Positions 8,259-55,593 are shown, counted from the whole stretch's first letter. The stretch is DNA of 61,542 nucleotides, filler included, from Dirinaria sp. TL-2023a (GCA_051941275.1; 13 parts of 13 records of this genome joined end to end with filler, not necessarily neighbours in it); one strand, 5' to 3'. The notes: generated from the letters alone by a model not told the origin. Program-made: numbers and translations.

Positions 8259-9518
8259 CCAGAGAACTCAGAAACATCCCGAAACTGCGAATAGTTCGGC
8301 ATATCATCGTCGAGCACGGTAAAGAGGAAGCCGAGGAGTCCTTAATCATCGTATGTCATCCTCTTGGCACTTATTATTTCATCTTTTCTGCCTACGCTTA
8401 GCATTCTGCCCCGCGATTTCACATTTATCAATTCTTTTCAGGACATTCATACTCCTCATTCACTTTTTCTGAACGGTGCAGCATGGTCCGAGGTTTATCA
8501 CGATCAGTTAATGCCGATCCTTTTTCTCAAATAGTTTTTTCAAATTCATAGTCGTTCAGATCGAGGTTGCTGATTTTCATATTGTCATATTTTGATGATT
8601 TGGAGGTGTTTATGAGGTGAATTGGGCCTATGTGTGCGTATTATTGGTGCTCAATTGCCGAAAATTCAAGAACTTTTGTGGTCAGTAGTACCCGGGGTCT
8701 GCTGACGAATTTACAGTCTAACCGCTTCCGTCAAACCATCTTGGCATTTGGTTAGTGGTGGTGAGGTTTTCTCAGTCTTACAAATATTGGGCGAAGTCTT
8801 TAAGAGACTTGTCTGCAGACATGGTTCTCTATTCCATGATCCACTCCAGAGTCGATGATAACCAGCATACATGTTCGCCTGACAAAATATCCGCCCGAAT
8901 CAAATTGATAACATGAATCAATATTGAACTCTTCTTGTATGCATGCAAAGTTGCCTTATTTCCCTAAAGCTCATACAGCCGCAAAGATAACAAATCAACC
9001 AATCACTGAAATATCATAGAACTCAACATATCCCCAAACCTATACAACAGACTAACAATAATCCCATCCCAAAAAAGTTCTCATTCTACACATCTTCCTC
9101 TCAGACGTCTCCTCCAACAACCATCCCCTCCCCTAAAACCCTCTTATCACCAACCCTCGAAATCACTCTACCATAATCCAGAAATATGCATCAAGCGCCC
9201 ACCATCACCATCCACGACGCTTTACCTATCCTACATGCGAGGTTCCACAACATATACATCCTTCCCTTGCTCAATGATCTCGGAGCCGAGGTTATCTATC
9301 TCACTTAGCCGCAACCTTTAATTTCATTCTTTTTTCTTTCTTTCAAAAAAGCTCACAAATGCAATAGCTACGGCTAGTTAAGACGCTCAAATGCATTGCT
9401 TTTTTTTTTTTTTTTTTTNNNNNNNNNNNNNNNNNNNNNNNNNNNNNNNNNNNNNNNNNNNNTTAATTAATTAANNNNNNNNNNNNNNNNNNNNNNNNNN
9501 NNNNNNNNNNNNNNNNNN

Positions 9519-27990: not shown

Positions 27991-29241
27991 AAACACACAC
28001 ATATATATATATATATACATATTCACATCCAAACTACCATGGTAGCGAAAGGCGGGTTTCGGATCCTTTTACCCCCCGTCTCTGTATCCACCGCGCCTGC
28101 AAAGCAAGCCTCTCTCTCCTCTTGTACAAAAAATATCAAAAGATAGCATAAAAAAAACCCCCCACAAAAAAATTCCTTCGAATCCAGCCCTAAGTATATA
28201 TTATGTAACTTCGCATCCCCCCCCTCTCTCGTTCTTTGATAGTCGGGTCTGAGGAAATGACAAGGCGACCCCCAGACCTTGCAGCAATTCGATTCTCGAT
28301 CCCTCGACTTACACACATATATCTCGTAGGAAGGAAGGAATTAGCAGCAGAGCATCTTCGGTTCTCTCCTACCTTTTTTATTATAGGTTCTATCGGTTGA
28401 CCGCCTCACCACTTTNNNNNNNNNNNNNNNNNNNNNNNNNNNNNNNNNNNNNNNNNNNNTTAATTAATTAANNNNNNNNNNNNNNNNNNNNNNNNNNNNN
28501 NNNNNNNNNNNNNNNTTAGAGACACCTCGAAAAAATGACTTATATAGAGCATTTTTAGAACTTAAAAATACGATACAACAGGCTTTCAAACCTTGGGCAA
28601 TAGTGGCAAGAACGTGGGCCTTTTGTACGAAATCTTAATTGTAGATCAAAAGTCTCGTCGAGGCATCCACGCGCTCCATATGAAAGAATCCTCTACTTCA
28701 CAAGCGAACGCCAGTACCGCAATTGACCCTACAACTGCTCAAAGTGATGATCAGGGTCATGCACCTTATCAGAATCGGCTATGCAGCGGAAACAAAGATC
28801 GAAGTCCTTGCAGTCGGCACACATGTAACGAGGACCCCAAACATCCTGCGAAACAATCTTTGGTTAGCTGGTTCCGAAAGGTTTAATACGACGGGAGTAC
28901 ACGTCACAGCTCTGCTGCCTCACAACTTACCATGTCACAAATACCACAGAAAGCCCTTTTGCGCTTTTCGCCCACAGCTTCCGCTGCACTGCTTGCACCA
29001 TTTCCAACGAACAACTGGGGTCTTAAATGGACGTTTCCGCAAAACATCGCAATCTGCACCGGCGTCCTTCCAGTTGCGTCGATTTTACTTTTGCTCGCCC
29101 CAGCCTTGAGCAGTTGCTTTACCACGGCAGCTGAGCCCGACTTTGCCGCCCAGTGTAAAGGGGTCCATTGCTGTGAATCTTCCATGTCGATTTGCGAGCC
29201 TGATCCAATTAACTTGCTGACGCATTCTGCAGATTCTGGGT

Positions 29242-29949
29242 TTGATTGATTGATTACTTCATTAGACACTCGGAGCCCGTCCTCAATCTGGACTAGCTAT
29301 GCGGCCATCAAAACAATCTATCTAAGGTATACACCTTAATCTCTCTGTATTTAATAACAATGTACTAATGAGTGGTTTCCTTCGGCACAATCGCCTCGAT
29401 CCTCTAACCGACGTCTCCTCTGCGACTTCAGAAGCCCGTTTCGGTACTCGTGGTTCATCCTGTGTAAATAAGTAAAGAAACAACCTCTAGAACTGAAGCT
29501 TTTCCTCGGCCTATTAACATCTTTGTATTCGTAATATCGAGGTCTCCATCTCTTAAATCGTAGTACTCGTGACGTGTTGAATATCGAGAAGAACTTGCTA
29601 CTAGTCTATAAAACATAGTACTGTAGCTGATGAAGAATGGCGAATCGAAGGGGATGTTCTCGGCAGTAACAGTATCGATGTCGCTGAAGGCGAAGTCGCG
29701 TGAAACAAGTCGAACTCTTTCTACCTTCTCTCTTGGCTTCGTGTCAACGTAAACGTCAATCACACAGAACAATCGACTTTGACGACGCGAATTTCGAGTT
29801 CAGACGCGTGTAGCAGACCAGATCACAGTTGTCATCACGAGGACACACTGCTCTCACTGTGCCCTCATCGTCAGGAGGATACTTGGCTCTATTGACATCG
29901 CAATAGGTTCGTAGCCGGCACCACGTACAGGTGATCCTCATCGCCGGCC
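29242..29949 (-). mobile_element. Non-autonomous non-LTR retroelement (SINE-like / internally deleted LINE), 708 bp
   Basis: 13-bp direct repeat GCAGATTCTGGGT at 29229-29241 and 29950-29962; 3' tail AA(TCAA)3 at 29255-29242; no intact RT ORF; interrupts an ankyrin repeat. Confidence 0.88.
29875..29949 (-). ncRNA. HDV-like self-cleaving ribozyme (predicted)
   Basis: GGCCGGC gau GAGGAUC ACC UGUACGU GGU GCCGGCU AC gaac CUAUUG cgaugu CAAUAG ag C caa G u AUCCUC: P1 with G1.U wobble, P2, P3, 7-nt L3, P1.1, P4, catalytic-position C at 29886. Confidence 0.85.
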
Positions 29950-32900
29950 GCAGATTCTGGGTAGGTAGAGGCGTGATGAATTGCAGTCATTCCTTGTTTA
30001 TCGCGCTTTGTTGACGAGCCTCGAAGGGATAGAAGCAAACCTACAGGGACACATTGGCCTTGTCTTGAAGCTGTGTGAAGGGATGTTCTCCCGGTCTGGT
30101 CTTCGCGATCGACATCAGCGCCGTGATTGATTAAAGTTTTCATCATGACTAGATTTTCGTTTTTACACGCTGCTTCCAGTGGTGTACCATAAAGCGGACT
30201 GCAAGCCTCACTGTCACTGCCAAAATTCAGCAGAATTTCAACAGCATTCAGATTATTAGCATAAGCCGCAACGTTGAGCGCAGTGCCTAGCTCGCCGGAA
30301 ATAGCGTTAACAGGTGCGCCCTGGGACACCAGGTATCTCAGGACGGATTCATTTCCATAGCAGGCAGCAATAAAGCAACTGTCACGCAGATCGTGCTCAC
30401 TACTGCTCGTCTTGCGCAGAATAAGATCCGCTGACGACGATAGACCCTGGGTTAAACTATGTATGAGAAGGACGTGTAAAAGGTAATTGCCCTGAACCGT
30501 ATTCTCGAAAGCGGCATCCACAAGGTCTTGGGTGACTTCGAGATCTGGCTGCCTTTTGAGTATTATCTCCAGGATTGATCGGTCGCAATACGGATTTTTC
30601 AACGCGGCTGCAGTCACGCTGTTCTCGATTTCTGTATCGGCAGGTAAATTGGCGAGTAGCAGTTTGAACATCGGCGTTCCCCGGTATTTGTTGGAGGCAG
30701 CTCGCTGTAACAGCTCGGTGTCGGCTCTCGCGCTGGTCCAATTGAGAAGAAAGTCAAGCAACGTAGTCAAAGCTTTTTCATTACTGGCTGCTGCCAGCAG
30801 AGCACCTCGGGTCACGACGGTATCCGGATGGCATGAGAGAAAATGCTGTAAAACAAATTTCCCATCTTCTCGCTTAGCTGCAGCTTCAACAAGAAGACTT
30901 TTGTTCATCTTCGGACCCCGATATTTTCCGAGTAGACGATCGAATTGAGTGGTGCTGAGCTCCGTGAGCTCCCACCGATCGCTATACCCTCCCTCCGACA
31001 CTTCTGATAAGATTGCGTCGAAAGTCAAATCTTCATCCCTCTCTACTTGAAGTGTACTTCCTTTAGCAAGATCGAACGTGAATGGGCTTGGGCCAGGAGC
31101 ACCGGGTTGTTCCAGCATCAGCTCAAACATTGATCGATCACCTGTCCGAGCAACTTCTTCGAGCACAAATCTCGAGATAGGGGAACTACTAAGTTGGGAA
31201 AGCAGGACCCGTAAGACAGCCATATTGGTGCCACGTACTCGGATCGCAGCAATCAGGTATTCCTCCTTAACTTCAAAATTGGGCTTCTCTTTTCTAAAAT
31301 GTTCCACAAATTCTATATTAGTCCCCTGAATAGCGGCAAGTAGCACATTGCCAGTCAACCCTGTCTCGACAGATTCACAAAATTGAAGGAGAAAGTCAAA
31401 AACCTGGGTGCCGTCCCACTCACAAGAAACGGAAGCTATCATCGATGCTTCTGTCACCGGTAAACTGGTCCAGTGGTTGGCAAGCACACGAACCAGCTCC
31501 AGCTTGTAAAAAACATTGGAGACGGGTTGAAGAAGGATATCTTCTGAAGGTCCAAGTTCGAAGCCAGCTTTGTGTCGTAACAACAGATCCAACTTGTCTG
31601 CTGCATCAAAACCACCCTTGAGAGACGCGCATACTACTTCTCTAGATATTGAGACTGCCCTAGGCGTGGAAATGACCGATTTCATTTCCGACAGAGAGCT
31701 CTTGGTGGCGCAGGCTTGTAAGAAGGCATCGGTAATACATAGAGACTCACCATGGCCTATACCTACCAGCAAAGCATATAGGTATCGCGATTGTTCTGCC
31801 GCAATATACAAGCTTTCTTCGAGTATTGAGGGACAATTGAGCCGAGGGAACAAGATATTGAGATTCTTTGCTGAAAGAGAGTTCGCTAGGACACTTTGGA
31901 GTACTTGCTGGCTGATCGTAGCAGTGTCAGAACGTTCGAGAAAGAATTTAAGTACAGCGAAAGCCAAGCTTTCGTTCGTGGCAGCTGCCATGAGCCAATC
32001 CTCCGTAGTATGATTAATTGAACAGTGTCCGGTGGGGAGGCCCAAGCTCGGAATAACTTCAGCTTCTATGTCGTACATCCTGGCCACGTTGCAAACCAAC
32101 TCTTCAGATATCTCACAACGTGAATCATGATTCAACAAAGCTTTCACGACTGCTTCTTTGTTGCTCTGCGAATAGCGGAAGGCCATTATGATGCTACTTT
32201 CAGAAACTCTGAGATTTTCACCTTTCGCGAGGATCATTTCCACTAGCTCTGGATTGATAGATGGATTTTGTACTGCCGCGTTCAACATACGCTCAGTGAA
32301 TTTTAGCGTATGGGATTTTGCCGTTATGACATCAAGTGTCTCAAACGAAGCACAATGTGAGAGAATATCAAGGTAGGTCTCTTCGTCAATCTCATTCGAA
32401 TCGTTTAAGAGACTTAGGACCATCTCTTTCCCAGATTTCGGGTCCTTTACTGCTTCGATGATTGTACTCTTGAACGGTATATCTTCAATGTGCTCTAGAG
32501 CAAATTTCCAAATGTCTAGATTGCGACTCCTTGCTGCTGCTGCTAACCACTCTTTGGCCCGTATAGAGGACCTAGGTTTCAGAGAAGCAGTGCGACAAAT
32601 CAACCTCATCGTGACAAGGTTTCCGTAAAACGTGGCAACCTCTAACGGCCTCGCACGCCCATCATTCTCCGCAAAAAGTGCCTTCTGCGTAGTCGCAGCA
32701 TCTACAAGTTCGTTAAGGCCATAGACACAAATCATGAACAACGGAAGTCCTGGACAACATCGACTATCGCGTCCCTCCTGCCAAATGTCTTCCTGTATGA
32801 ACAAATTTGATCTAAAGCAGTCAGAATTCCATCGGTCAAAAGCGTTGTTAGACTCTCGGTCTAAAAAAAAATCCTGCATTAGACCTCGAAGCCTCGGCTC

Positions 32901-34330
32901 TTGTCTTAGTCTGCCCGACTTCGAACAATGTCGGCCAAGGCAAATGCACGCATAGTTGCGAAAACCGTCGTGATCCAGGTACTTCCAATCGGACCTAAGG
33001 TAACTTGTTAAGCATGCCTCGGCAGCGACACCATGTGCGACTTCTCCACTAAAGTCGGGCCTCCTTTCAAAGAATTCTTTCACCGAGAGATGGGCGAAAG
33101 TGAAATACACATGATGAACTTCTACGGTCATCAAACCCCGTGTCATCCTAAGAANNNNNNNNNNNNNNNNNNNNNNNNNNNNNNNNNNNNNNNNNNNNTT
33201 AATTAATTAANNNNNNNNNNNNNNNNNNNNNNNNNNNNNNNNNNNNNNNNNNNNGCCTTGTAGCCTGTAGTAAGGTAAGAAGGCCCTGGTACGGAGTAGT
33301 CCTTGTACCGTACCTTAGTTCTCTTTCTTCGCAAAGATAGCGGAAGGACGCCCCGGTGTGTGGCGCCGCTTGTCACGGAATACGTCTGCCTAGCCCGGAT
33401 GTGGTAAGGTGTGGTATCAACGCTGCGACGACGGCTGCGACTCGCTGCATCGTCGGACGAGCATGGTTAAGGTCTCATCACTTTAAACTTACCTCACCTA
33501 CCTTACCTTACCTACCTCACTACTATCCTGATTGCCTCAAGAAGGTTTCCCTCGTATGGACCAGCTGCTCTGTTGAACCCGAGAATACCATCCCCCCCCA
33601 TGCACAAGAAAGAGGGTGTCGTGGGGACATTCTGATAGTCTCAACAAATGCCCTATCTCTTAGCTCCATTCCACCAATCCTATGCTTTCGAATAGCCACA
33701 CACCATCATCCGGCCCCCTCCCCCAATCGAACCTACCTTACTCCGTATCCTACCGACTACGTCTACTTACACGACTCACACTAAACCCAACAGCTTAAGG
33801 TAACGGTAGTCCCAGCTCCCACTATTATATCCCGGAGACCCCTCCTTTCCCTGCTTTCTGACCACAAGAACCTGGCCACCTCCATCGAAGATCATTCGTC
33901 GCCTGTCACAAGCTGCATACCTGTCGCCAAGCGATCTATGATCCGTGTGAGCATTACGACTCCCACCCGCCGTTGACGCCCTATTGGCCCTTCTAGTGCT
34001 TCTGAATTGCCCGAACGTTGATACTGATGCTTAGCATCTCCTAGTCCTCGAGCTACCCCACAGGACGATCATCTGCATGAAATTTTCCGCATTCCCGTTA
34101 CATTACCTCTGCATTCATCGCAGTCAAGCTCTGCCTATCATTCAGGCGCTAGTCGAGGACCTCCGCTCAGGCTTTGACGCCGCTGCAGATCAACGACATC
34201 TGGATCAACTCCTCGCTGCATGACTAAAGGACCTCTAGGGTGTGTCTATCGTGTCTATCGACCCTTGGAGCCATCAGAAGGTTTCGGATCGGCCATCTGC
34301 CGCCAACCTACAAACTTACGCTGCTGAGCC

Positions 34331-43780: not shown

Positions 43781-44150
43781 TGTGAAAGACGTGACAGTGT
43801 AATAGATTATATGACTATCTGATACTATAGTTTCTGCTAGAACTAATCACTAAGAATCTTTCTCGAAAGAGTGAGTGATTCTTTATACTTAATCGCGAGC
43901 GTTAACATTGTCTCATCGTGACGAGCCCCGCGCTGACGAATCACGAGCGCTCGTAGACACAATGCTCTATAAACGTCAATCGCTCACTGACTTCTAGTTA
44001 GTCTCGAAATTCAACCTTTCGACGCTGACTTCTAGACGACGCTAGCCATGCTTCAGACCTCGAAGGATTGCCTCTGGGCACCCTCGGCTGCCAAGCGGCG
44101 CTAGTCTGCATTGATCAATATATACCAATGTATCAGGTATCACTGTTACA
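43781..44150 (-). repeat. LTR copy A (370 bp, TG...CA), 5' LTR of a minus-strand element
   Basis: TGTGAAAGACGTG...CTAGTCTGCATTGATCAA...CTGTTACA, homologous at both ends to 44930-45318. Confidence 0.8.
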
Positions 44151-44929: not shown

Positions 44930-45318
44930 TGTGAAAGACGTGGTAGTGTAATAGATTGGCTTGCTATCTAGTACTATAGTTCTTGCTAGAACTAATCACT
45001 AAGAATCTCAAGAAAGAGTGAGTGGTCTGCTATACATAACTGCGACTTCTAACATCATTCCGCTATCATGTCTCATCATGATCATCTGATGCTAGATAAT
45101 AGAGAGTCAGCAGATATAGTATCTTACAAGCGCTGACTTTTCACTGACGCTTGTGTAGACTAAAAAGCTTGATCTTCGAAAGCTGACGATTCGAAAACGC
45201 ATGTATAATTTTTATACACATGACGTCTATTTATGACTATGATTCTTGATAATCGACGCTCAGTCGACGCTAGTCTGCATTGATCAACATATATCAATAT
45301 CAATATATCGCTGTTACA
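44930..45318 (-). repeat. LTR copy B (389 bp), diverged relative of LTR A
   Basis: Shares termini and the blocks GCTAGAACTAATCACTAAGAATCT and CTAGTCTGCATTGATCAA with LTR A; central part diverged. Confidence 0.8.
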
Positions 45319-47462: not shown

Positions 47463-49262
47463 CTGTTTAGACTCAAAGAACAAGACATATTCAAAAAGAA
47501 AAAGATTGAGATTTTAGAATTCTTGTACGAAAATTTCGTTCACGTATGTCACGAGAACACTGTCGTCATAACAGAAGAGTATAGTCAATGAGTTTATAAC
47601 GTCACGCTCGTGAAGATGAAGAACGAATTTAAGAATCGATTGAGACAGACATACGAAGAGAATCGTCATTGAAAAAAGATAATGAATCTCGTCAAAAATG
47701 ACTCAAGCGATGACTCTCAAAACGATGATCACGATCGTGATATTAAGTTTAAAATGCAAAATGATCTGCTATATTACGTATCTGATCAAGAACATCTACG
47801 TCTATGCATACTCGAGATCATGAAGCAGAAGATTTTTGAGATAACTCACGATCAAACTCATCACGAGAGTTTTCATCGTACATACGATCGTATTGCTTCG
47901 TCAATCTATATACGATAGTTTATCAAACGGCTCAGAAATTACATCACTCATTGCTCAAATTGTCAATTGAATCAGACTAAAAGACACTCAATTTATGACG
48001 AGTTAAATTCTATCGTCACGTCTTCAATCTCTTTTCACATCGTAGCGATGAACTGAATCGTTGATCTTCTCATCTTCAAGGACGAATTCGATATCATGTT
48101 GACGATAATCGATAAGTTCACTAAAAGAATCTTATTGCTATCAGAAAAAGACATCTGAGATACACTCAAATGGGTCTCGATCATAGTCATCGCGTTAATT
48201 GACCATGACTGAGACGTACCTCGATCGATAATTAACGACAGAGATCCGAAGTTTATGTTCGATTTTTGGACGACGGTATTCAAGAAAATGAGCGTTAAGA
48301 TGTTGACATCGACAGCTCATCACTCACAGACAGATGAACAATCAGAGAGAACGAATCAGATTATTGAGATAGCTCTTAGATTTCATCTTACAGCGCACTC
48401 AGAAGACGATTGATCAGAAGTTCTTTCGTATTTACAAGCAGAGTTCAATAACGTGACTCATGTCATCACTGACTTCGCTTCAAATGAGCTTGCATACGAC
48501 TTCAAAGTTCACGATGCTTTAAGTCTCTTGTCGAATTTGTCAGTCGAAAAGTTCGATCGTTTACGTCAAATCAAACGCGAAGATACAGACGTCGTCATGA
48601 CGTTCGCGAGCGCAATAAATAAAACTCGTTACGACAGACTTCACAAGAGCATAGCAAGTATGATACAATCGAGTACTATGATTTATCTACGATTTTATCA
48701 GAGCTATACGATTCTCGAGCTAGCAAACAGAAAACTGTCGCAGCAGCGAGTCGAATCATTCAAGATTCTCGAAGCAGTCGAAAAAGAACGTCAGACTTTT
48801 CGTCTAAAACTATCTTCAATAATGAAAATACATTCAGTCATCTTCATAACGCAACTTGAGCTCGTTGTCAAAGATAAAGACTCGTATAACAGATTTACGA
48901 ATGACAATGTCGAAGTCGTAGTCGACAAGTACATCGACACTGAAGCGTCGTCGTACGAGATAGAACGTCTTTTAGTCAAACGAATTATCAGAGACAAGCT
49001 CTACTATTTGATCAAATGAAAAAGGATTGATAACGAACATAATATCTGATATTCTATCAGCGATTTGAAAAATGCGATCGAACTAGTAGCTGATTATGAA
49101 CATCGTCTGATCAATAAATCAAACGAAGAAAAACAGTTGCTACTCAAACGTCGCTCAGAACGTTCGGTCAATAAGAATAATCAGTCGATCAGCAAACGAA
49201 ATGAGAACAATCAGTTAGTATTCAAACGTCGCTCAAAGCGCTCGCGAAAGCAGATGTCATGA
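47463..49262 (+). mobile_element. Degenerate Ty3/Gypsy (chromovirus) pol: integrase and chromodomain
   Basis: HHCC finger (HDQTHH...CSNC), MN*IVDL, IINDRDPKF, HSQTDEQSERTNQ, KIHSVI, chromodomain YEIERLL...YLIK*. Confidence 0.92.
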
Positions 49263-52807: not shown

Positions 52808-55593
52808 TCATGTCGTTCCGAGCAAGTATAAAATAAGAAGTGCGGTGTAGATGCATATATAGGTACCAGCTATACGGTTACTTGCGCTGGAGCTCTGGGA
52901 GTCAGGCTTGGAAGATGCAGGAGCAATAGGAGATAAATCTGGTGCGTCTGCGATAATGCTTGTCTTGTCTGCTAAAGGCGCATAGCCGAATGTAGACACA
53001 ACGCTAGATTCTAGCCCTTCCGGATTCGCAGGTCTTGGATCCCCCTGAAGTGGGCCGGACGATGTGGTGGGGAGTGCATATGTGGTTCCTTGCACAACCA
53101 CAAACCCCTGCTCTAATGAGACCGAAGTACCTTCGACAACAGTTTGTTCTCCTTGCGTCAGAGTCACGCCGTCTAAGACGACGGCACCATTGCTTGCAAG
53201 TGAAACAGCAGGATCAGTAGGTAGAGGCAGTGCATATGTCTTCCCATCCACGATGAGACTATCCGAGACCAAGGATATCACAGTGCCAGATATTGTTGTC
53301 TGCGTACCTGGGACCAACTTATGACCATCGAAGACTACGGCACCGTTGCTTTCACGTGAGACAGCCGAGTCGGTAGGTAAAGGCAGCGCATACGTCTTGC
53401 CACCCACGATCAGTATGTTCCCACCTACTGATACCGCCGTGCCAGATATTGTCGTCTGGGCGCCTGCCATCAACCTGTGGCCATCAACAATCACCGCACC
53501 ATCACCGGCACGCGAGATTGTAGAATCAGTGGGCGTGGGAAATGCATACGTCTTTCCGGCGGCGACGACGATCCCCGAGCCCACGGTTATCGCATCTCCG
53601 GAGGCAGTCACTTGATAGCCGCTCGAGTAAGTTTTGCCATTGACGATTATGGCACCACTGCTGTCTGTAGATATTGTAGGACTCTCCGCCGAAGCGCTAG
53701 GATCAAGAAGAGCTTGAAGACTTTTCGCTGGCAAAATAGGAACGGTAAGAACTTCGCCATCATATGATATTTCTCGATAGCGTTGCGAGAGTGGGCTAGG
53801 TGGATCCGTGATTGAGGGTTTGCTGTAGGTCCTCGTACCTAGGACAAGATGACCTTTCGCAACGGAAACGTAAATGCCACCAATTGTTGCACTTTGGCCT
53901 TGTGGAATTGTTTGACTACCAATAATGATCGCGCCACTAGGACCGGCTTCTATTTCGTCTCCAGGTGTCCAAACAGCTGGCCTTTCGGCAATGGAGAGGT
54001 CGTCCCAAGGTAGCTTACCGCCTAGCGATGCCGCAGTGGATGGCATGGCATATGTGCTGCTATCAATGACGAGGCGATCTGTACCAACTGACACGCTGAT
54101 GCCGTCAATGGTAGTCTGGCTTCCGCTAGATACCACCTGATCACCCAAAATGACTTCACCCTTGTTCGTGACCTTCAGCCGATGTCCACGGATTATAGAG
54201 GGCGGCGGATCAAGCACCGCAGGGCTCCGTGGTTTAGCAATGCTAGAACCACCAATATAGACACTCTGGGCATCTGCGGAGACGCGTGTATTGGCAACGG
54301 TAATTGCAGGAGCACCAGGTTTCAAAATAGTACCTGCAACTGATACAGCGCCATCGGGCAGAACGTAGACTGGCTGATTTGCGGCAATTGCAACATTCAC
54401 TGGTGTCGCTTTAGGCTCTTTGGCACCTTTGCTGGGAGCACTGTCTGCTTGTGGATCTCCTAGCGACCAAGGATTTCCGCCCTGAATGCCTCCTGCTTGA
54501 GGAGGAATTCCTGGTGAGTGATTTCCAGGACGAGCAGGATGCGATGGTCCTGGCGCTGCCGTCTTTTTAACTGAAATAGCAGCGGGCACATCGGCTGGCA
54601 TCGTTGCCTTAGGCATTGGTGTCGCCACACTTGTATGATACATCGGGCCAAAACTTTCAATGCTTTGCGGCGCAGTAGGCGACTTAGGAGGAGCAAAATG
54701 CGACGAAGCATCCGAGGTATGGTGTGCTGGTGCCGGTGCTGGTGCTGGTGCCGGTTCCGGAGTTAAAGCGTGCACTGGCACCAGCGCCCTCGGCGGATCG
54801 TATGCTCCCCAATTGTACACATCGGCATCGCATTTTTTCCACTTGGGGTCGATGGTCTTGATGTCCGCTGGGTAGCTTACAATTGGGCTTGCAGCCATTT
54901 CTGTTCCATTGGGATCAACACCCCCGAGAGGACCCGTACCACCGTCTTCGCCGAATTGCCAGAAGCAACCTTGAGCAGCGATCCAATTCTGCGAAGGGTT
55001 CGATAGATCGTTTACATTGAGCGCTGCCCATGGGCGCCCATTTGCGCCGTGGTAGTCGCAGTCGCCAGGGACGGTCATGAGTGCTTTTGGAGGGTAGGCC
55101 TTTGTAATGTTGTAGTGTGCCGCCAGAGGTGTAGGGGGACCACGGAGCCAGTCCTCAATCACAGCAGAGACGGTGCTCCAGACGACATAGACAGAAGGCG
55201 AGGTGCTTGCAGCGTTGTCAGTGCAGTTTCTAGTAAGGTCAAAAACGGTCCAACGACGAACAACGTGTAATTACCCTCAACGGCTGTGACGATGTCTGGA
55301 GGTCGGGTAACATTGGTCGACGTTGTGGATTCAGGGAAGTAAAGCACTTGGACATTGCCAACGTCCAATATGCATTCACTATAGTCTATCGACGAGGTGG
55401 TATTGGTCCGAAGGGACGAAGTGGCGTTGAGTTGAAGCGACGACGTCTTGCTGATAGGCATACCGACACTGGCTGTCAAACGCGTGAGAGCACTGGTTGC
55501 GTTGGCCATTCTGGATCTCGTCGAGAACGGACGTGTGGCCGCTGCGGATATAACATAATAAAACAGCAATTGGACAAGGCTACAGAGATGCAT
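52808..55593 (-). CDS. Secreted, probably GPI-anchored Ser/Thr/Pro-rich cell-surface protein with ~50-aa tandem repeats (intron ~55262-55207)
   Basis: Signal peptide; FTSPSVYV, DPKWKKC, YDPPRAL; repeats GAVxVDGxxLxxGxQTTISGTxxSxGxxxLIVxGKTYALP; hydrophobic C-terminus after a Ser-rich omega region. Confidence 0.8.

Follow-up and report, generated by a model that had tools for sequence, protein, structure and literature searches.

A probable promoter-less retroposon with a ribozyme-like head in an ankyrin-repeat gene of a lichen-forming ascomycete

What is the 708-bp segment that interrupts an ankyrin-repeat gene in the genome of Dirinaria sp. TL-2023a (GCA_051941275.1), and what sets the base at which it begins? 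The segment lies on the minus strand of the window analysed here, a stretch of 61,542 nucleotides (nt) of that genome, filler included. Its first 75 nt can be drawn as a structure like that of the hepatitis delta virus (HDV) ribozyme, and relatives of this structure are found in metagenome contigs. The insertions start at the very base at which this fold is predicted to cut. We conclude that the segment is probably a promoter-less, non-autonomous, non-LTR (LTR, long terminal repeat) retroposon of a lichen-forming ascomycete, which would depend on a long interspersed nuclear element (LINE) and take its 5' end from self-cleavage of a read-through transcript.

The insert and its host gene

The insert occupies 29242-29949 on the window minus strand, between perfect copies of a 13-bp target-site duplication (TSD) whose letters on the plus strand, GCAGATTCTGGGT, stand at 29229-29241 and 29950-29962. 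On the sense strand, as exon sequence at 29950-29962 read on the minus strand, the duplication is ACCCAGAATCTGC. This upstream (5') copy abuts the element: the minus strand continues directly from 29949 as GGCCGGCGAUGAGGAUCACCUGUACGUGGUGCCGGCUAC..., and the first base past the duplication is G1 of GGCCGGC, the 5' strand of helix P1 of the HDV-like fold. At the 3' end the sense strand reads ...GAAGUAA(UCAA)3, with its final base at 29242, and then enters the downstream (3') copy (29229-29241, minus strand), which was located by direct-repeat search. The 3' microsatellite tail, read from the sequence as (TCAA)3 with AA before it (29242-29255, minus strand), appears on the plus strand at 29242-29253 as TTGATTGATTGA; it was too short to be reported by Tandem Repeats Finder at a minimum score of 30. 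Within 29150-30050 the duplication is the sole direct repeat of at least 10 nt and no inverted repeats occur, and elsewhere in the window neither the ribozyme core nor the tail recurs, the element being single-copy there. A DNA transposon or miniature inverted-repeat transposable element was rejected on the lack of inverted repeats and on a TSD length that varies.

Between ribozyme and tail lies a non-coding body (29256-29874, minus strand) without a reverse transcriptase (RT) or endonuclease frame, tRNA, or A/B boxes. Directly behind the ribozyme it contains a 50-nt box (element nt 77-126; 29824-29873, minus strand), delimited by contig matches in one sequencing run, and its final ~60 nt include CATAGC, a small hairpin and GTGTCT, followed by the tail. 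The element's longest frames have 114, 84, and 63-76 amino acids, and Pfam at E<=1 returned 0 matches for the three frames tried. ARAGORN found 0 tRNA genes in the element, Rfam no tRNA-, 7SL- or 5S-like 5' part, and neither an A box nor a B box lies on the sense strand at up to one mismatch from the box consensus sequences. A canonical short interspersed nuclear element (SINE) with an RNA polymerase III (Pol III) head was rejected on these three results. An earlier note on this DNA, made from the sequence alone, had described a 708-bp full-length copy running from the ribozyme G1 to a microsatellite tail, bounded by a perfect 13-bp TSD and free of tRNA-type boxes and of an RT frame; in all these particulars it was correct.

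The host gene encodes an NLR-like ankyrin-repeat protein on the same strand as the insert. Its upstream part is a frame at 29952-33206 and its downstream part, with the last ankyrin repeats and the C-terminus, lies at 28904-29239 (both minus strand, from open reading frames [ORFs] and ankyrin matches); ankyrin repeats are encoded at the end of the first frame and in the frame that resumes at 29239 and spans 28907-29239. As it stands, the upstream frame reads on into the ribozyme and reaches a stop at 29889, and the two parts are in phase once the insert and one TSD copy are removed. The C-terminal 328 residues, used as a protein query, had 219 matches at E<=1e-10, those best placed among the matches with species names being proteins of lichen-forming Lecanoromycetes, namely Caloplaca aetnensis (54% identity), Kuettlingeria erythrocarpa (53%), Letrouitia subvulpina (52%), and Bacidia gigantensis (42%), with other relatives at up to 67-68% identity.

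Five homologues, including the NCBI-named C. aetnensis and K. erythrocarpa proteins, were aligned with the two window pieces, and all five are continuous across the insertion site (...HHAS..S.E...L..SG...). The window protein reads ...HHASTYPES, then the insert, then PESAECVSKLIGSG...; the closest homologue reads ...HHASTYTQSTECVGKLIESG... there. Because every homologue reads through the site, the segment has, on this protein alignment, been inserted into an exon of an ascomycete gene of lichen type and is not an intron. The earlier note had taken the host ORF to be intact apart from the insert, which agrees with the shared phase of the split frame relative to the TSD and with the continuity of the homologues. 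It had also proposed a recent insertion, which is plausible given the perfect TSDs, the intact ribozyme and the open host frame on each side.

The HDV-like head and its relatives

The ribozyme (element nt 1-75; 29875-29949, minus strand) was identified by a fold drawn by hand, by pair counts in an alignment and by a covariance model. Judged by covariation, which shows the fold, these nucleotides form an HDV-like nested double pseudoknot, and all of its pairs in P1, P2, P3, P1.1, and P4 form in the window copy. P1 joins nt 1-7 to nt 31-37 (29943-29949 with 29913-29919; GGCCGGC/GCCGGCU), the first pair being G1-U37. P2 joins nt 11-16 to nt 70-75 in 6 bp (29934-29939 with 29875-29880), and a single unpaired C, C17 (29933), separates it from P3, in which nt 18-20 pair with nt 28-30 (29930-29932 with 29920-29922; ACC/GGU). 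Loop L3 is UGUACGU (29923-29929), and its G22 and U23 pair with A38 and C39 to make P1.1 (29927-29928 with 29911-29912; GU with AC). The P4 hairpin lies at 29889-29906, with nt 44-49 paired to nt 56-61, and junction J4/2 is AGCCAAGU (29881-29888), with the putative catalytic C (C64) at 29886. The cut predicted for such a fold, 5' of G1 (29949), is the exact junction between TSD and element.

The nearest Rfam family, RF02682 (the Faecalibacterium prausnitzii HDV ribozyme), has the same layout of P1 and P3. Its L3 reads UCUaCGU where the element has UGUACGU, and its junction GCUAAG where the element has GCCAAG; it differs in being a bacterial sequence with another P4 and another P2, and the element is not a member match.

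Relatives were collected from metagenome contigs by an exact 20-mer scan with element nt 17-36, which yielded at least 120 loci; the same scan of viral contigs yielded 0 loci. After removal of identical sequences, 71 distinct ribozymes, the window copy included, were aligned to a structure of 27 pairs. Standard pairs fill 97.7% of the 1890 pair cells, compared with 38-58% when partners are slid by 1-3 columns, and changes on both sides are seen at eight pairs (three of six in P2 and five of the nine counted in P4); none of 500 shuffles matched the observed pairing, both-side changes or covariation score. P1 is paired in 98.2% of cells over the 71 sequences, with C-to-U changes in the 5' strand that keep U-G pairs, and P2 in 99.5%, in the versions GAGAUC/GAUCUC, GAGGAU/AUCCUC, GAGGUC/GACCUC, GAGAAA/UUUUUC, and GAGAUU/AAUCUC. 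P4 ranges from 6 to ~16 bp in at least four hairpin designs, and J4/2 is GCNAAG, matching the RF02682 consensus line. P3, L3, and P1.1 are near-invariant since the search pattern covers them (P1.1 has one G-U variant), and C17 is present in 71 of 71 sequences but lies inside that pattern.

A covariance model built from the 71-sequence alignment scored the window copy at 78.7 bits (E 6e-16), and, run over the 268 kb of loci, added five matches, which lie at three places outside the 20-mer's selection. One of these copies, at locus L031, has the P1 strands GGUCAGC/GCUGAUU and another, at L025, has the P3 strands AUC/GAU, with pairing kept in each case; the L025 copy is AT-rich and decayed, so that chance paired transitions are possible there. 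The L031 copy (L031:242-318, plus strand; duplicated at L058:237-313) is a second, more divergent ribozyme ~1.2 kb from the first one of its locus. Its P2 no longer obviously pairs, and it may belong to another subfamily.

Each metagenome locus was taken as the match plus up to 1.5 kb on either side. The 5' flanks of these loci diverge exactly at G1, and the window element is common to them only over nt 1-45 to 1-77. An all-against-all comparison of the loci distinguished at least five kinds of mutually unrelated non-coding bodies of 0.6-1.5 kb. Group A, with the majority of the loci listed, has bodies of ~1.0-1.25 kb; group B, with the ribozymes most like that of the window, ~0.6-0.65 kb; and group C ~1.2 kb. 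Group D is the longest at ~1.5 kb, AT-rich and full of stops, with a terminal repeat of the TTAA/TCAA type, and singletons represent further body kinds. By this sequence comparison the ribozyme is a movable head, standing on at least five unrelated non-coding bodies.

TSDs were sought at the 72 loci whose sequence extends for 600 nt or more downstream and 45 nt or more upstream, which represent 51 distinct insertion sites. An exact TSD of 11-18 bp (mode 14) was found at 28 of the 51, its upstream copy ending at the base before G1 and its downstream copy following the tail. All 28 differ in sequence, and a control 11-mer taken from 30-41 nt upstream recurred in 0 of the 72 loci. Tails at the 28 sites are (TCAAA)n at 12, (TCAA)n at seven, (TTACAA)n at three, (CA)n at one, and other at five, the (TCAA)n tails of the relatives running from (TCAA)3 to (TCAA)8. 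When the window is counted with the 28 sites, 20 of 29 have T just before the TSD, and 18 of 29 TSDs open with A. Several TSDs begin AAT(C) and continue the tail repeat, as is expected if nicked DNA anneals to the tail of the RNA.

Copies of the 708-bp body itself were sought in four of nine sequencing runs, compared with the element at 80% likeness; the four come from four studies, one of them labelled as lichen metagenome RNA. All four runs contain matches, 44 contigs in total, which jointly span the element from tail to G1; four of these contigs match at 95-99%, the rest lower, and none at 99% or above. Matches end at 29242 in seven contigs (three runs) and at 29949/29950 in four (three runs), and the flanks beyond these ends differ between contigs. 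Since the matches share two ends and differ in their flanks, they represent related copies at different places in several organisms. The earlier note had called the element a family, and these runs and the metagenome loci bear this out, with multiple copies that have shared ends and variable TSDs. No contig joins across the insertion site of the window in the four runs.

In one run (X1), two contigs match only the box at nt 77-126, with loose ends at 29824 and 29873; read at these loose ends, they carry the 3' part of a ribozyme with another type of P2 before the box and another body after it. One of the two, 5298 nt long and from an RNA library, contains ~4.7 kb of other sequence, the 3' part of a ribozyme with the junction AGUCAAG, the 50-nt box, and then its own, different body; this contig may be either the uncleaved co-transcript of a copy whose ribozyme is dead or DNA in the library. 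Among the RNA contigs of the run a relative of the body has a depth of 273, compared with 3.6-6.8 for host-gene flanks, a difference that we do not count as expression, as copy number or DNA carry-over could give the same.

Many copies lie in very AT-rich DNA, with a GC fraction of 0.19-0.28 in places (L017:540-634, minus strand; L025:29-105, plus strand; and the bodies at L020 and L039). These copies show C-to-T and G-to-A decay that extends to their tails, where TCAA has become TTAA, and which we take to resemble repeat-induced point mutation.

Proposed mechanism and competing explanations

No promoter of the element's own was recognised. We propose that the element would be transcribed within a longer RNA that starts outside it, which in the window copy would be the transcript of the same-strand ankyrin-repeat gene. 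The first 75 nt would fold and cut the RNA 5' of G1, giving the element a defined 5' end and, in the window copy, also severing the host mRNA. The endonuclease and RT of a LINE, made in trans, would nick a T-rich^A target, prime on the 3' microsatellite and copy as far as the RNA's 5' end, and copying to that end would leave TSDs of 11-18 bp abutting G1. Self-cleavage at this position is predicted from the fold together with the insertion junctions; outside transcription, cleavage 5' of G1, and the trans-acting LINE enzyme are proposed by analogy with R2, RTE, and L1Tc elements.

Several results weigh against this account. Rfam at its curated thresholds has 0 matches in the whole window, and the best match of a permissive scan, to RF02682, reaches 14.7 bits (E 5.7), where the gathering score is 44. 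In a nested minimum-free-energy fold, nt 1-80 do not outperform shuffled sequences (z -0.18), as is to be expected of a pseudoknot in a program that cannot model one. The 3' strand of P1, P3, and L3 were fixed by the search pattern and offer almost no independent covariation, and about one fifth of the distinct ribozymes read AGUCAAG at the junction, with U in place of the putative catalytic C; these copies are presumably dead. The 708-bp body past nt 77 is in none of the at least 120 loci, at most 7% of the element's sampled words are present in any sequencing run, and contigs cannot show RNA ends.

The same holds for the source of the RT. An exhaustive search of 1.84 billion protein representatives with the 114-residue frame gave two weak matches, both to repeat proteins without RT. 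No RT or endonuclease domain was found by Pfam in the 60 longest of 118 locus ORFs of at least 130 residues, which are ordinary host genes only, and no RT-like frame lies in the downstream 1.5 kb of representative loci. A LINE sharing the element's 3' end or its ribozyme was found neither in the 268 kb of loci nor in protein searches. The earlier note had supposed that an autonomous LINE with the same 3' end lends the RT, and this proposal found no counterpart in those data. Finally, orientation relative to the annotated upstream gene has no sense bias, with five insertions on the same strand (including that of the window) and six head-to-head.

The head-to-head loci (L048, L058/L031, L008, L073, L010, and L078) are six of 11 in a small sample with partial ORFs and no statistics. 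Their G1 lies ~40-700 bp from the start of the neighbouring frame, a setting that might mean insertion into open promoter DNA or the use of divergent promoter transcription. Transcription from outside the element is plausible in either the same-strand or the head-to-head setting.

The most serious competitor to a LINE-dependent element with a movable head is possible, but we regard it as doubtful. It would make the insert the short product of internal deletion in a single autonomous LINE, with this ribozyme at the start of that LINE and (TCAA)n at its end, and the body a remnant of its untranslated regions. Head and tail are the parts that any deletion derivative must keep, known ribozyme-headed elements such as the R2 short internally deleted elements (SIDEs) and NARTc are described as having arisen by deletion (PMC3414825, PMC3383444), and groups A and C share with the window element a loose 3' layout of CATAGC, hairpin, GTGT, and tail. 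Against such a parent, no LINE with this head occurs among the at least 120 loci, and the body has no coding remnant. That one head stands on five or more mutually dissimilar bodies speaks against descent from one deleted parent; it would demand either several LINEs of this kind or movement of the head from one RNA to another. The earlier note's reading stands in part: a full-length, non-autonomous, target-primed retroposon without a Pol III head is supported, its RT donor is putative, and its derivation as an internally deleted LINE has no support.

We consider it quite improbable that the fold is an inactive motif, kept for binding of RT or ribosomes or the like, and that the 5' end comes from an internal or edge start of RNA polymerase II or III. 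The Rfam thresholds discussed above are not reached, cleavage is predicted from sequence, and in trypanosomes the same 77 nt are described as both promoter and ribozyme (PMC3383444). An inactive motif would leave unexplained the pairing pattern of the HDV fold, the compensatory changes in P2 and P4, the conserved GCNAAG junction, and insertions that begin exactly at the cut base of the fold at 28 of 51 sites; there are also no A or B boxes. Less probable still is a retrozyme-like element multiplying through circular RNA, which would likewise be a small, non-coding, ribozyme-bearing repeat: here each element has a single ribozyme, LTRs and a tandem arrangement are absent, no back-joined read was seen in the four runs compared, and the simple-repeat tail with TSDs of variable length is typical of target-primed reverse transcription. 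An intron, named in the earlier note as a case to be checked, or some other native portion of that gene, or an artefact of assembly, has a negligible chance of being right even though the segment lies inside the host gene and on its strand, given that it is absent from all five homologues, starts with GGCC and has the borders GG...AA rather than GT...AG, is flanked on both sides by a 13-bp duplication of exon sequence, and has related copies at other places in other data sets.

Relation to known systems and meaning for fungal genomes

Ribozyme-headed non-LTR elements and non-autonomous derivatives of them are established in insects, in trypanosomatids, and in animals other than insects (PMC3414825, PMC3383444, PMC6765202). 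The R2 SIDEs of Drosophila resemble the element in being short, non-coding non-LTR derivatives whose 5' HDV-like ribozyme cuts a co-transcript; they keep 3' sequences for the RT of the autonomous element, occupy one site in 28S ribosomal DNA and have a known parent, R2 (PMC3414825). In contrast, the window insert is fungal and lies in a protein-coding gene, and its relatives are at 51 sites, with TSDs of 11-18 bp and microsatellite tails. In trypanosomatids, one ~77-nt HDV-like head (Pr77/L1TcRz of L1Tc) stands on a LINE clade and on several non-autonomous families (NARTc, SIDER, and RIME) and releases the elements from longer transcripts (PMC3383444, PMC4035085, PMC3185411); this head is also an internal promoter, autonomous L1Tc/ingi partners are known, and the sequences are unrelated to the element.

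RTE and baggins elements with HDV-like ribozymes (PMC6765202), and schistosome SINEs and non-LTR elements whose ribozymes are of hammerhead or twister-variant type (PMC8501958), are promoter-less and dependent on read-through, with a 5' end trimmed by the ribozyme, as is proposed for the element. These systems differ in being animal elements, some with other ribozyme classes; in the text accessible, PMC6765202 names "a diverse variety of metazoans" and not fungi. The element thus appears as a fungal addition to an established kind, represented by R2 SIDEs and NARTc, in a large group that is seemingly undescribed. No account of fungal or lichen retroposons that carry HDV-like ribozymes came up in a literature search, with Repbase/Dfam and the majority of subscription journals outside its scope.

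The closest fungal precedent, and the only one that this search brought up, is the set of 230 HDV ribozyme variants from 26 species of filamentous ascomycetes reported by Li and Breaker (2017; PMC5640933), which occur many per genome with "widely variable gene associations" and typically have an extra nucleotide, mostly C, between P2 and P3. By description, the only basis on which they were compared, C17 at the P2-P3 junction of the element corresponds to this nucleotide. In the published variants an E-loop replaces part of P4 and the pair at the cleavage site is C-G, whereas the element has a regular, covarying P4 and a first pair G-U; the paper itself gives R-Y in its text where its Table S1 gives Y-R. 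In the accessible text of that paper "transpos", "repeat", and "copies" occur 0 times and no link to mobile elements is made, and no lichen fungi are among the species listed there.

Other features of the window lie apart from the element. An Argonaute gene at 18976-22091 (plus strand) is present as two open frames, the first with ArgoN and ArgoL1 and the second with ArgoL2, Mid, and Piwi, and is presumably split by an intron. Between 42000 and 52000 the GC fraction is low (0.38-0.43); a weak match to the Ty3-type SH3_Tf2-1 lies at 48414-49019, repeats of 79 nt occupy 43781-43859 and 44930-45008, and the DNA of this region is probably that of LTR retrotransposons in decay. An 820-residue open frame at 52808-55270 (minus strand) contains a 156-nt tandem duplication (53169-53480), and its only Pfam match, weak and to a bacterial pilus family, most likely reflects repeat composition. 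Runs of N lie at 9400-9518 and 23672-23790 and near 28400, 33150, 52090, and 56820; several have long poly(A) or poly(T) tracts or A-rich simple repeats beside them. They are assembly gaps at homopolymers, and one falls in the N-terminal part of the host gene frame.

For the host, a sense insertion of this kind in an exon breaks the frame and is also predicted to cut the mRNA, and would therefore make a strong loss-of-function allele, here of an NLR-like ankyrin gene. For lichen-forming fungi, the relatives define repeat families of 0.6-1.5 kb that have no ORF, Pol III head, LTR or terminal inverted repeat, and which standard SINE and LINE finders are unlikely to label. The 71 natural variants are a ready covariation set for the HDV fold, and the presence of one head on unrelated bodies raises the question of how RNA modules pass between retroposons.

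A concrete role is also offered for fungal HDV-type ribozymes, of which two cleave in vitro and for which the accessible text of PMC5640933 states no function: the formation of the 5' ends of mobile elements. We put forward as a tentative generalisation, to which we give somewhat less than even credence, that fungal HDV-type ribozymes in general stand at the 5' ends of SINE-like, promoter-less retroposons that make up a superfamily, each ribozyme being a module of ~75-95 nt that moves between unrelated bodies. If this is true, such an element would be defined by a self-cleaving head and a microsatellite tail instead of a Pol III promoter, and the donor of its RT need not carry the ribozyme. 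This would add a third route by which SINE-like parasites of LINEs are built, one that current annotation of fungal repeats would systematically miss.

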